A stretch of DNA of 64,000 bases from an uncultured Acidobacteriota bacterium (GTDB lineage Bacteria > Acidobacteriota > Vicinamibacteria > Vicinamibacterales > SCN-69-37), in contig CAVSRY010000011.1 in the NCBI GenBank assembly GCA_963730485.1, forward strand, positions 47,059 to 111,058. The letters run 5' to 3'. A program made the position numbers and the translations under genes. Positions 44,888-46,978 of the stretch are shown one piece after another. The notes beneath the pieces are model-generated. The model had not been told where the DNA came from. It did not search any database and was given only the letters and a program-made list of their open reading frames with translations. Every line of letters begins with the position of its first letter. Positions within the stretch are counted from its first letter, which is position 1.

Positions 44888-46978
44888 ATGCATAAGCCGG
44901 TCAAGTACGTCGAGAAGGGGCTCACCATCGCGGCCAAGGGCGCCTGGGTCGTCTTCGACGCGTTGAACAGCATCAAGCAGAACGAGTCGTTCACGCCGAA
45001 GTGGTCCGAGAAGCCGCTCCTGAAGTCGTGGCAGAAGGTGAAGCCGCCGCTCGGCTGGCCGCGCGAGACCGACTCGCTCTGTCCGGTCTGCGTGCGCGAG
45101 GCCCGTCAGGAAATCCTCGACGGCAAGCGCGACTACAAGGTGCTGCTCACCGAGAAGATCGGCGAGATCAAGGCGACCATCATCGAGCGCGACGGCAAGA
45201 TCATGATGGTGAAGGATTGCCCGATTCACGGCCACTTCGAGGACGTGATGGCGATCGACTCGGCGTTCTTCCGCCACCTCGAGGAGTCGTTCCCCGGCTC
45301 CGACATGCGCGCGCACAACGACGAGAAGCTGCACAACCACGGCTCGTCGACGATCAAGTACGGCCGCGGATCGGTGCTCACGGTGGACCTGACCAACCGC
45401 TGCAACATGATGTGCGACCCGTGCTTCATGGACGCGAACCAGGTCGGGTTCGTGCACGAGCTGGCCTGGGAAGAGATCAAGACGCTGCTCGACAACGCCA
45501 TCACGATCAAGCCGCGGCGCCAGATGTCGGTGCAGTTCTCGGGCGGCGAGCCGACGCTCTCGCCGTACTTCCTCGACGCCGTGCGCTACTCGCGCAAGGT
45601 CGGCTACAACTCGGTGCAGGCGGCGACCAACGGCATCGAGTTCGCGAAGAGCCCCGAGTTCGCCAAGGCGGCGGCCGAGGCGGGTCTGCGATATGCCTAC
45701 CTGCAGTTCGACGGCATCGGCAACGCGGCCAACTCGCATCGTCTCGTCGGCAACCTCTTCGACGTCAAGCTCCGGGCCATCGAGAACCTGTGGCGCGCGG
45801 GCGTGGACATCGTGCCGGTGACGACCATCGTCAACGGCGTGAACAACGAGCAGGTCGGCCGCATCATTCAGTTCGCGCTCGACAACCCGAAGAAGATCTC
45901 GTTCCTCTCGTTCCAGCCGGTGTCGTTCACGGGCCGCGACGAGGAGATCACCGACGAGCGCCGGCACGCGCAGCGCTACACGCTGTCGCACCTCGCGCAC
46001 GACGTGAAGAACCAGACGGGTCTCGGCGAGCCGGTGCGCGACTGGTTCCCGATTTCGTTCATGGGCACGTTCACCGACTGGGCCGACCTCGTGCACGGGC
46101 CCGCGTCTGACTGGGGCCAGCTCAACTGCGGATGCCACCCGAACTGCGGCATCGGCATGGCCGTCATGGTGGACAAGGAAACGAAGGAAGCCGTGCCCGT
46201 GACGGCGTTCCTGAAGGGCGAGCAGCTCGCGAAGGACATCGCGAAGGTCAACGACGCGGCGCGCGGCAGGAAGATGTCGGTCGTCGGCATGGCGCTGGCC
46301 CTGATGAAGAACTACGACCCGTTCAAGTCGCCGACGCACTTCAAGATGGCCGACCTCCTGAAGAAGTTCGACAAGACCTTCGGGGCGACCAAGGGCGCGC
46401 GCACCGGCAAGTACGGCAGGGTCGAAGGTGACCGGACGGACAAGGACATCGAGATCCGCCGCGGCGATCGCTGGAACTTCCTCTTCATCGCGGGGATGTG
46501 GTTCCAGGATCTCTTCAACTACGACTTCCGCCGCACCGAGCGGTGCATCATCCCGTATGCGACGCAGGAGGGCGAGATCAGCTTCTGCGCCTACAACACG
46601 GGCATCGGCTGGCGGAACATCATCGAGAAGATGCACATGACGGCGACGCTCACCAAGTGGTACGACGAGCACGGCCGTCACGAGATCTTCGCCGGTGGCA
46701 AGAAGGTGGCGCTCGATACGACCCAGCACAGCCTCAAGCTCGACACCGAGGCGGTGAACAAGGGCATCCAGCACGACCTCGACGACAAGGGCATCGCCAA
46801 GACGGCGCGCGAAGAGAAGCTGCGCGCGCGCAAGGTCGAGCAGGAGAACAAGCGCATGGCCGAGCTGTACCGCCAGGTCGTGCTGAAGGAAGCGAAGCCT
46901 GAGGTTGCAACCGGCCTCCAGATTCAGGGGCTCGGCGGCGCCAAGAAGGCCGACGACAAGGAAACCGTCACGCACTAA
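44888..46978 (+). CDS. radical SAM enzyme, Tes / GDGT-MAS-like (candidate membrane-spanning lipid synthase)
   Basis: Uninterrupted 696-aa ORF. N-terminal CPVC..CPIHG knuckles, VDLTNRCNMMCDPCF (CX3CX2C), QFSGGEPT, TNG, YLQFDG. C-terminal Cys-rich region NCGCHPNCG..ERCIIPYATQEGEISFCAYNTG. Confidence 0.7.
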   Translation: MHKPVKYVEKGLTIAAKGAWVVFDALNSIKQNESFTPKWSEKPLLKSWQKVKPPLGWPRETDSLCPVCVREARQEILDGKRDYKVLLTEKIGEIKATIIERDGKIMMVKDCPIHGHFEDVMAIDSAFFRHLEESFPGSDMRAHNDEKLHNHGSSTIKYGRGSVLTVDLTNRCNMMCDPCFMDANQVGFVHELAWEEIKTLLDNAITIKPRRQMSVQFSGGEPTLSPYFLDAVRYSRKVGYNSVQAATNGIEFAKSPEFAKAAAEAGLRYAYLQFDGIGNAANSHRLVGNLFDVKLRAIENLWRAGVDIVPVTTIVNGVNNEQVGRIIQFALDNPKKISFLSFQPVSFTGRDEEITDERRHAQRYTLSHLAHDVKNQTGLGEPVRDWFPISFMGTFTDWADLVHGPASDWGQLNCGCHPNCGIGMAVMVDKETKEAVPVTAFLKGEQLAKDIAKVNDAARGRKMSVVGMALALMKNYDPFKSPTHFKMADLLKKFDKTFGATKGARTGKYGRVEGDRTDKDIEIRRGDRWNFLFIAGMWFQDLFNYDFRRTERCIIPYATQEGEISFCAYNTGIGWRNIIEKMHMTATLTKWYDEHGRHEIFAGGKKVALDTTQHSLKLDTEAVNKGIQHDLDDKGIAKTAREEKLRARKVEQENKRMAELYRQVVLKEAKPEVATGLQIQGLGGAKKADDKETVTH

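Follow-up and report, generated by a model that had tools for sequence, protein, structure and literature searches.

An uncultured bacterium of the Vicinamibacterales (Acidobacteriota) carries, on a 64,000-nucleotide stretch of contig CAVSRY010000011.1 (GenBank assembly GCA_963730485.1, positions 47,059 to 111,058; hereafter the window), a gene for an enzyme of the radical S-adenosylmethionine (SAM) type with 696 amino acids (44888..46978, + strand). The protein belongs with the tetraether lipid synthase Tes and with GDGT-MAS of Methanocaldococcus jannaschii and represents what we call class B, which, to judge from alignment and phylogeny, is a distinct, phylum-wide, and unusually conserved three-cofactor variant, paralogous to acidobacterial Tes. 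By analogy with GDGT-MAS, we lean slightly towards the reading that class-B enzymes couple two iso-branched tails tail-to-tail to give membrane-spanning lipids of the iso-diabolic-acid type. The substrate and product in this proposal are drawn from that analogy; the fold, ligands, clade structure, and distribution come from the data set out below.

The gene family and the bacterial-Tes hypothesis are already known, and the separation of the class-B clade is what this analysis adds. The hypothesis itself was published with a set of 456 bacterial Tes homologues proposed as synthases of glycerol dialkyl glycerol tetraethers of the branched type (brGDGTs) (Zeng 2022; PMC8941075), and the same brGDGT proposal was made for two S. 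usitatus homologues (Halamka et al.). Mss, another radical SAM enzyme, makes diabolic acids in anaerobes (Sahonero-Canavesi 2022; PMC13159169). Iso-diabolic acid is found in almost all species of acidobacterial subdivisions (SD) 1, 3, 4, and 6, yet Mss is absent from the acidobacterial genomes examined, and Tes homologues at E<=1e-50 and >=30% identity occur in 3 of 14 iso-diabolic-acid producers, from which it was inferred that Acidobacteria use another pathway (PMC13159169). Class B, at 31-34% identity to the M. jannaschii enzyme, sits at the 30% identity threshold of that screen. Later papers still call the bacterial Tes homologues unconfirmed. According to a 2026 paper that cites the work, Tes (and Ger) homologues correlate with tetraester and brGDGT production in Koribacter and Solibacter (Chen et al. 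2025). A first-pass annotation, made from the DNA letters alone, had stated that bacterial homologues were proposed for brGDGT or iso-diabolic-acid synthesis with limited proof, and the literature agrees (PMC8941075). In a literature search of incomplete coverage, no publication came up in which the two acidobacterial clades are told apart or a class-B protein is assayed.

Superfamily assignment and fold

Membership in the Tes/GDGT-MAS superfamily is secure because Pfam, NCBIfam, the PDB sequence match, and the Foldseek fold comparison agree. Pfam places Radical_SAM (PF04055) at residues 168-330 and the "HMPTM" zinc ribbon (PF23545) at residues 58-122, and Tes (NF045702) is the best NCBIfam model (E=4e-93, 312.5 bits; curated equivalog cutoff 450). 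In a PDB sequence search, residues 93-591 align with residues 35-511 of 7tol_A (E=3.6e-61), and GDGT-MAS (7tol/7tom) is the only solved structure matched along the length of the chain. An AlphaFold2 model built from a 25-sequence alignment (pLDDT 83.5, pTM 0.84) bears out the expected GDGT-MAS-like fold: a Foldseek search of the PDB returns 7tom/7tol (E about 5e-34, target-normalised TM score 0.86-0.87, ~565 columns). The next match, SkfB (4e-7), covers the radical SAM core alone, and the SkfB and PqqE structures align with the radical SAM core only. The initial family call thus stands at the level of the superfamily, by sequence and by fold, but not at the level of the canonical Tes equivalog (312.5 bits against 450).

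Two other families fall away on the same evidence. The second NCBIfam model, TrsS (NF045646), scores 206.7 bits against a cutoff of 490 and covers only residues 92-378; TrsS has a zinc ribbon and a radical SAM core in common with the window protein, the match ends at residue 378, and membership is rejected. A SPASM peptide maturase, which the first-pass annotation had named as one outcome that would overturn its call, is excluded: no SPASM Pfam domain matches the window protein, and the NCBIfam models for SPASM-type maturases, MoaA, and NirJ reach only 25-72 bits against cutoffs of 180-650, over residues ~160-370.

Domain layout

The protein opens with a clade-specific N-terminal extension (residues 1-57; 44888..45058, + strand, as for all domains given here) that contains a confidently modelled AlphaFold2 helix at residues 3-29 (pLDDT 88-96). 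This helix is moderately amphipathic (hydrophobic moment 0.45, maximum Kyte-Doolittle value 1.1) and may be an in-plane membrane anchor. Hydropathy analysis finds no transmembrane segment in the 696-aa protein, and a peripheral membrane enzyme would fit both observations. The rubredoxin-like zinc ribbon that follows (residues 58-124; 45059..45259; PF23545, E=2.5e-14) holds C65-X2-C68 and C111-X2-H114, in agreement with the GDGT-MAS motif C9X2C12X20C33X2H36, and in the alignment it has an insert of ~20 aa relative to canonical Tes. By alignment, a Cys-free linker (residues 125-162; 45260..45373) stands in place of the N-terminal [4Fe-4S] domain; it bears the conserved motif HNHGSSTIKYGRG and is of low pLDDT or disordered at residues 142-159. 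The radical SAM core (residues 163-380; 45374..46027; PF04055, E=1.1e-16) contains C172-X3-C176-X2-C179, GGEPT at 219-223, and the SAM/5'-deoxyadenosine loop Q343/S346/R350. The C-terminal auxiliary-cluster and lipid-pocket domain (residues 381-600; 46028..46687) is delimited by the ligand alignment and the fold match. Last comes a clade-specific Lys/Ala/Glu-rich tail (residues 601-696; 46688..46975), recognised from the AlphaFold2 model, composition, and conservation, with a charged helix at 640-665 and ~28 final residues that are disordered and poorly conserved.

The protein has 11 Cys in total, and every motif quoted by the first-pass annotation lies where it was reported, in an intact 696-aa frame. 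The knuckle residues are CPVC (C65/C68) and CPIHG (C111 and H114), the radical SAM site is NRCNMMCDPCF (C172/C176/C179) with FSGGEPT further along, and the C-terminal part contributes NCGCHPNCG (C414/C416/C420), ERCIIPYA (C553), and FCAYNTG (C567). These last Cys had been taken for extra clusters in a long C-terminal extension. Most of that region is instead the normal C-terminal cluster domain of Tes, and the true extension spans only ~600-696 and is free of Cys.

Conservation extends to the parts that set the clade apart. Across 53 full-length orthologues from several classes, mean identity to the window protein is 79%, rising to 90% in the radical SAM core (138/218 columns invariant) and standing at 74% in the N-terminal extension and 78% in the linker; the last 28 residues are the sole freely varying part.

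Metallocofactor ligands

GDGT-MAS binds a rubredoxin-type metal through C9, C12, C33, and H36, an N-terminal cluster, [4Fe-4S]N, through C73, C77, C80, and a conserved His, the radical SAM cluster through CX3CX2C, and a C-terminal cluster, [4Fe-4S]C, with a labile Met439 (PMC9433317). These ligands were mapped onto the window protein in a 34-sequence alignment that includes four orthologues from related acidobacterial loci, seven distant class-B sequences from a 50%-identity protein library, 15 canonical Tes, and two MoaA outgroups. GDGT-MAS C33 and H36 correspond to C111 and H114, which are invariant across all aligned members. The radical SAM ligands C98, C102, and C105 correspond to C172, C176, and C179; the SAM loop Q268, S271, and R275 to Q343, S346, and R350; and the C-terminal ligands C338, C455, C470, and M439 to C420, C553, C567, and M537. 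All of these are retained in the window protein, and within the acidobacterial core clade the last three sets do not vary. At the position of C416, a Cys is frequent in other Tes too, though M. jannaschii GDGT-MAS has none there; C414 is largely clade-specific.

The N-terminal auxiliary cluster is where class B departs. GDGT-MAS C73, C77, C80, and H83 are replaced by K147, H151, S154, and K157, and the window protein has no Cys between residues 111 and 172, so this surface [4Fe-4S] is predicted to be lost and three of the four metallocofactor sites to be retained. Conservation of the auxiliary Cys ligands, which the first-pass annotation had offered as a check on its call, therefore divides: the C-terminal cluster keeps its ligands, but all four ligands of [4Fe-4S]N are gone. 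Loss of the exposed cluster may, speculatively, be an adaptation to aerobic life.

The comparison with GDGT-MAS (MJ0619; 7TOL, 7TOM; Lloyd 2022; PMC9433317) can thus be drawn closely. Both proteins share the fold (TM score 0.86-0.87), the rubredoxin-like CX2C...CX2H site, CX3CX2C, the Q/S/R SAM loop, the three C-terminal Cys with Met, and the lipid-pocket domain. The window protein is ~32% identical to GDGT-MAS, lacks the N-terminal auxiliary [4Fe-4S], and adds the 20-aa rubredoxin insert, a 57-aa N-terminal extension, a 96-aa C-terminal tail, and C414 and C416. The hosts differ as well, the class-B host being an aerobic bacterium with ester-linked non-isoprenoid lipids, and the activity of class B is a prediction from sequence.

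Two classes and their distribution

An exhaustive search of the 50%-identity library yields 613 representatives at E<1e-30, of which the full-length members sort into two groups. In class A, CPxxCGxCxxH directly precedes the radical SAM motif and the Tes model gives 474-584 bits, whereas class B, the window type, has HNHGSSTIKYGRG at that position and reaches 219-414 bits. CPxxCGxCxxH occurs in 14/15 class-A sequences and in none of the class-B sequences. In a neighbour-joining tree with bootstrap, the class-B sequences form one clade inside the Tes diversity (support 0.70, rising to 0.84 when the intermediate sequence P0135 is left out). The acidobacterial class-B core is recovered at 1.0, and the acidobacterial canonical Tes group elsewhere, also at 1.0. 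The first-pass annotation had suggested phylogenetic placement among radical SAM subfamilies; by this tree the protein falls within the Tes superfamily, but in a clade separate from characterised Tes.

In a scan of one genome per species, relatives of the window protein occur in at least 598 species genomes, and the best 80 of these, which were compared in detail, are 77-88% identical to it. Their hosts are Vicinamibacterales, Acidobacteriaceae, Terriglobales, Bryobacterales, Solibacter-like bacteria, and Blastocatellia, and they include the isolate Acidipila rosea DSM 103428. A few metagenome-assembled genomes (MAGs) labelled with other phyla share acidobacterial synteny and are for that reason probably mis-binned or mislabelled.

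Canonical Tes (NF045702; M. acetivorans MA_1486, Zeng 2022; including the Koribacter protein P0554) has the same superfamily and domain order as class B, is likewise proposed for omega-omega coupling, and also occurs in Acidobacteriota. It keeps CPxxCGxCxxH and is patchy in Acidobacteria, whereas class B is without the motif and phylum-wide. The two meet in five Terriglobia loci, where a second gene, 0.5-10 kb downstream of class B, scores 573-589 bits on NF045702 (L023, 14337-16019; L027, 18163-19872; L042, 13471-15213; L051, 12611-14330, split; L032, 21588-22094, at the locus edge). These downstream proteins are 66-82% identical to the Candidatus Koribacter versatilis Ellin345 protein (P0554), and members of this Koribacter-type clade are named "tetraether lipid synthase Tes" by NCBI. 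The window protein is 34% identical to Koribacter Tes, and no other Tes homologue occurs elsewhere in the 64-kb window. The window protein is thus paralogous to genuine acidobacterial Tes: both types coexist in some genomes and form separate clades. Just upstream of canonical Tes in L023 and L027 lies an open reading frame (ORF) that by eye resembles polyphosphate kinase 2. The 10 kb on either side of Tes in K. versatilis Ellin345 do not include the class-B gene.

Identity to M. jannaschii GDGT-MAS separates the classes in the same way: 31-34% for class B (E about 1e-65 to 1e-70) and 41-44% for acidobacterial class A (about 1e-141 to 1e-154). The identities published for Koribacter (42%) and Solibacter (40%) and for the only homologue of Edaphobacter aggregans (32%, 4e-61) (Zeng 2022; PMC8941075) mirror these tiers, and the lone homologue of the brGDGT producer E. 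aggregans is therefore probably class B.

Divergent members also exist. Terriglobus roseus DSM 18391 encodes a class-B paralogue (WP_014786616; P0136; L081/L082, 8001-9875) with 41% identity to the window protein and with all five C-terminal Cys lost. The integrative conjugative element that contains it also encodes a TrwC relaxase, two integrases, and a TraG/TrwB coupling protein. A similar loss of C-terminal Cys is seen in P0153 and P0187. The T. roseus protein was considered as a counter-example and rejected, since its location marks it as an accessory paralogue and not the housekeeping copy.

Reading frame and integrity of the gene

The ORF listing of the window gives the 696-aa frame an ATG start and a span, stop codon included, of 44888..46978. 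Length by itself is uninformative here because the DNA is 64-69% G+C and an antisense ORF of 712 aa overlaps the frame. The G+C content at third codon positions (GC3) decides between them: at 0.948 for the + frame against 0.579 for the antisense ORF, and the highest among 45 GC3-supported ORFs in the window, it identifies the + frame as the real gene. The coding sequence of this class-B Tes-like radical SAM enzyme is thus delimited by ORF, Pfam, NCBIfam, PDB match, AlphaFold2 model, and GC3. One database protein is 100% identical to the window protein, and more than 100 cluster representatives are 85-98% identical, several of them named Vicinamibacterales or Acidobacteriota, which puts the source of the window in the Vicinamibacterales (acidobacterial subdivision 6).

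High GC3 recurs in related loci. In 92% of 66, the class-B gene lies above the median of its neighbours (Wilcoxon p=1e-11), and in 62% of the 66 it ranks first among the genes up to 10 kb away on each side, a pattern consistent with strong codon selection and high expression. The window ORFs next highest in GC3 encode a SpoIIE/FHA phosphatase, a PHO4 transporter, and PhoU, with no housekeeping markers among them.

The first-pass annotation had set the unbroken gene against broken surroundings, and locally this is borne out: the genes for UDP-glucose dehydrogenase and MsrP are split relative to the orthologues in L001, L003, and L006. The UDP-glucose/GDP-mannose dehydrogenase homologue (41536-42899, - strand) is spread over three frames and MsrP (42996-43958, + strand) over 3-4 frames, each against intact orthologues in those three loci, and MsrP and MsrQ look fused into one ORF through frameshifts. 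The frameshift sites show no obvious homopolymer runs, and assembly error and true decay are both possible.

Proposed function and rival explanations

If class B works as GDGT-MAS does, reductive cleavage of SAM would generate a 5'-deoxyadenosyl radical (Lloyd 2022), which would take a hydrogen from the terminal methyl of an iso-branched lipid tail. The resulting carbon radical would be held on a sulfide of the C-terminal cluster until another tail is activated by a further SAM and a bond forms between the two omega carbons, with electrons presumably fed through the rubredoxin-like site alone. In Acidobacteria the product would be iso-diabolic acid (iso-C15 + iso-C15), and with it tetraester or tetraether lipids that span the membrane and from which brGDGTs are built. 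Mss of Thermotoga and Thermoanaerobacter couples fatty-acid tails to diabolic acids, the activity proposed here for class B; it is described as only remotely related to Tes and as found so far only in anaerobes (PMC13159169).

Distribution speaks for this proposal. Iso-diabolic acid is near-universal in SD1, 3, 4, and 6, Tes occurs in 3/14 producers, Mss is absent, and class B is widespread, so class B fits the lipid better than canonical Tes or Mss does. Acidobacteria of SD8, 10, and 23 make no iso-diabolic acid. The linkage to canonical Tes in the five Terriglobia loci also counts in favour of a lipid-coupling role, as do the fold, the retained catalytic residues, the strong constraint on the sequence, and its codon bias. 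Several points weigh on the other side. The activity of class B is predicted from its sequence, and in the literature searched even canonical bacterial Tes has correlative support only. At 312.5 bits, the protein misses the Tes equivalog cutoff of 450, and one of the four cofactors of the sole characterised structure is missing, so the chemistry could differ. P0136, P0153, and P0187 have lost C-terminal cluster Cys, which implies that the scaffold can be used for other purposes. Class B and canonical Tes share some genomes, and paralogues may differ in role. A lipid-biosynthesis gene is never a conserved neighbour across the 80 loci. High expression is itself deduced from GC3, in a window that has no highly expressed gene for calibration.

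The main rival, which we consider unlikely yet serious, is a lipid-directed radical SAM enzyme with another reaction, such as intramolecular macrocyclisation, mid-chain cross-linking, or C-S or other chain modification, the membrane-spanning link being made by canonical Tes or another enzyme. A distinct clade that keeps the fold and the C-terminal lipid-pocket domain yet lacks a cofactor could have such a role, as could one with the extra Cys C414 and C416 and terminal extensions; coexistence with canonical Tes suggests subfunctionalisation, and GDGT-MAS itself also makes macrocyclic archaeol (PMC9433317). Set against this, canonical Tes is too rare (3/14 genomes) and Mss too absent to account for near-universal iso-diabolic acid (PMC13159169), class B is the sole widespread candidate with the right catalytic apparatus, and a universal acidobacterial product of such other reactions is not known. 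Strict orthology to archaeal Tes, in which the bacterial enzyme would share all four metallocofactors and turn diethers into tetraethers in the same way, is very improbable. Tes is the best family match (E=4e-93), GDGT-MAS the best PDB match, and JGI names some members "tetraether lipid synthase", but the score lies below 450 where canonical members reach 474-589, all four [4Fe-4S]N ligands are lost, genuine Tes of the Koribacter type, at 76% identity to the K. versatilis protein, is present in the same genomes as a separate clade, and isoprenoid GDGTs are unknown from bacteria (PMC8941075).

A non-lipid substrate is improbable too. JGI labels many members "7,8-dihydro-6-hydroxymethylpterin dimethyltransferase", the Pfam name of the N-terminal domain derives from HMPTM, and NirJ, MoaA, PqqE, and SPASM maturase models of NCBIfam match weakly over the radical SAM core, all of which would suit a pterin methyltransferase, as in the older HMPTM label, or an enzyme that matures a peptide or cofactor. 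HMPTM, however, is MJ0619, which is GDGT-MAS; its pterin methylase role was not corroborated, and it was reassigned as a lipid synthase (Lloyd 2022; PMC9433317). The maturase models remain at 25-72 bits over residues ~160-370 and the protein lacks a SPASM/twitch domain, while its C-terminal domain fits the lipid-pocket domain of GDGT-MAS and no precursor-peptide or cofactor genes are conserved nearby in the 80 loci. A dead remnant of a gene, or a product of faulty assembly in a stretch that is decaying or rich in errors, is hardly credible: neighbouring genes do contain several frameshifts, but this ORF is intact, has an independent database entry of 100% identity and others of 85-98%, retains every catalytic residue, tops the window in GC3, and ends in front of a strong terminator. 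Among these explanations, tail-to-tail coupling by class B is the one we prefer.

Upstream region and leader hairpin

The 250 nt 5' of the orthologues in L001-L079 were compared with the region upstream of the window gene. At 44686..44750 (+ strand), the sequence GGCAGTTCGCC ... GCTCACCCCCC ... CGCTGAAC forms a candidate regulator-binding or promoter-proximal region, and motifs like GCCCGTTCGC, TTCACCCCC, and CTGAA recur upstream of about 30 orthologues. In Vicinamibacterales, GCCCGTTCGC repeats spaced at 10-21 nt occur together with TTCACCCCC and TCTATCATTT; the block in Bryobacterales is CCATACAAC at -130 to -158, with CTATACT after it; and Terriglobales carry the blocks CAATAACATAG, CACCGTTCAATG, CCGCTGAACC, ACACCCGTTC, and ATAAT. 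Blocks at fixed distances suggest a conserved promoter or regulator site. An inverted repeat search finds a short G+C-rich hairpin with 13-nt arms at 44762..44790 (+ strand), the loop of which contains a -10-like box, GATATTCT (44773-44780), a candidate promoter element. The boxes upstream of orthologues read GATATTCT, CTATTCT, CTATACT, and TATCAT. A scan with the sigma-70 consensus finds no full promoter upstream of the gene. The G-run GGGGGG at 44880..44885 (+ strand) ends 2 nt ahead of the ATG and probably acts as an element of the Shine-Dalgarno type; orthologues have GGAGG or AGGAGA in the same place.

Between the -10-like box and the start codon lies an A+T-rich hairpin (44790..44873, + strand) made of inverted 7-nt arrays (GAAGTNA / TTCTNAC), detected by inverted repeat search, RNA folding, and tandem repeat analysis (period 7). 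Its 32-nt arms occupy 44790-44821 and 44843-44873, it folds at -52.7 kcal/mol (z=-4.4), and its exact sequence is unique within the window. The structured leader proposed by the first-pass annotation is real in that sense, but it is not specific to this gene: it belongs to a class of heptamer repeats and is absent upstream of orthologues, including that of L001, whose protein is 88% identical. A search of Rfam up to E 1 returns no family, only a chance snoRNA match on the opposite strand. A riboswitch or other known RNA is rejected on these grounds, namely the missing Rfam family, the lack of conservation in orthologues, and membership in a window-wide repeat class. In L002 and L017 the GATATTCT/GATATCGT box lies ~7 nt before the ATG, whereas in the window the hairpin separates the two. 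Because orthologues are without the hairpin and the box of L002 and L017 is next to the ATG, a generic element seems to have been inserted into the 5' region in this lineage, and the leader does not look like a dedicated riboswitch.

The same period of 7 and the same architecture, with differing unit sequence, recur at a dozen or more intergenic sites of the window: 2124-2180, 2879-2945, 3750-3852, 5891-6013, 15737-15860, 18848-18932, 33089-33182, 36224-36309, 37006-37074, 40308-40398, 41450-41533, 44790-44874, and 47069-47093. The arrays are often paired in inverted orientation to form a long hairpin; the one at 41450-41533 lies between convergent genes and the one at 40308-40398 after a stop codon. 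They may be terminators, or a mobile or slippage-generated class of element. Similar TTCAGAG heptads lie directly upstream of the radical SAM gene in L021.

Terminator and neighbouring genes

A terminator scan confirms the textbook terminator described earlier: an intrinsic terminator at 47000..47045 (+ strand), with a 16-bp stem of 11 G-C pairs and a 4-nt loop (stem-loop 47000-47035) followed by TGTTTTTGGG. Beyond it, the array at 47069-47093 consists of GTTCCGG heptads, and a perfect 10-nt direct repeat, GGTTACAACC x2.2, occupies 47116-47137; both lie between the terminator and the next ORF. That ORF (47256-47675, 139 aa) matches the Pfam PEMT family (E=5e-10), so the membrane methyltransferase noted downstream has its family match, but a PEMT-like gene adjoins the class-B gene in 0/80 related loci. 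As a partner of the enzyme it is rejected and its position taken as coincidental.

The gene does stand alone, as the first-pass annotation held. All-against-all clustering of ORFs from the 80 loci finds no conserved neighbour family, and an operon or gene-cluster context is rejected accordingly; MsrPQ lies upstream only in ~12 Vicinamibacterales loci. The gene thus reads as a single-gene unit that ends at a strong terminator. In two Blastocatellia loci (L038, 8714-9850; L075, 8742-9839) and one groundwater acidobacterial locus (L044, 6547-7569), a radical SAM gene of ~340-380 aa lies directly upstream of class B on the same strand. Its product matches only Radical_SAM and Fer4_12 in Pfam, falls short of the NCBIfam cutoffs, and may be a lineage-specific partner.

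Significance

The brGDGTs are among the molecular proxies used most often for past continental temperature and pH. Acidobacteria are the main suspects as producers, and which of their enzymes assemble the membrane-spanning core has yet to be demonstrated. Published screens lump all "Tes homologues" together or use identity cutoffs of >=30% that class B barely reaches. The presence of class B throughout the phylum, its extreme conservation, and its retained coupling machinery narrow the question to one concrete, testable gene. For enzymology, class B is a natural experiment on which cofactors of Tes are dispensable.

It is quite conceivable, if somewhat short of probable, that class B, and not canonical Tes or Mss, is the general iso-diabolic-acid synthase of Acidobacteriota: a streamlined Tes, running on two [4Fe-4S] clusters plus a mononuclear iron site and fitted to aerobic hosts and their ester-linked iso-C15 tails. 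If so, it would explain why nearly all SD1, 3, 4, and 6 species contain iso-diabolic acid despite few canonical Tes and no Mss. The canonical Tes of Koribacter- and Solibacter-like lineages would then be an add-on, for example for ether-linked substrates, and in metagenomes the class-B gene would directly mark the chief producers of brGDGT precursors in soil.

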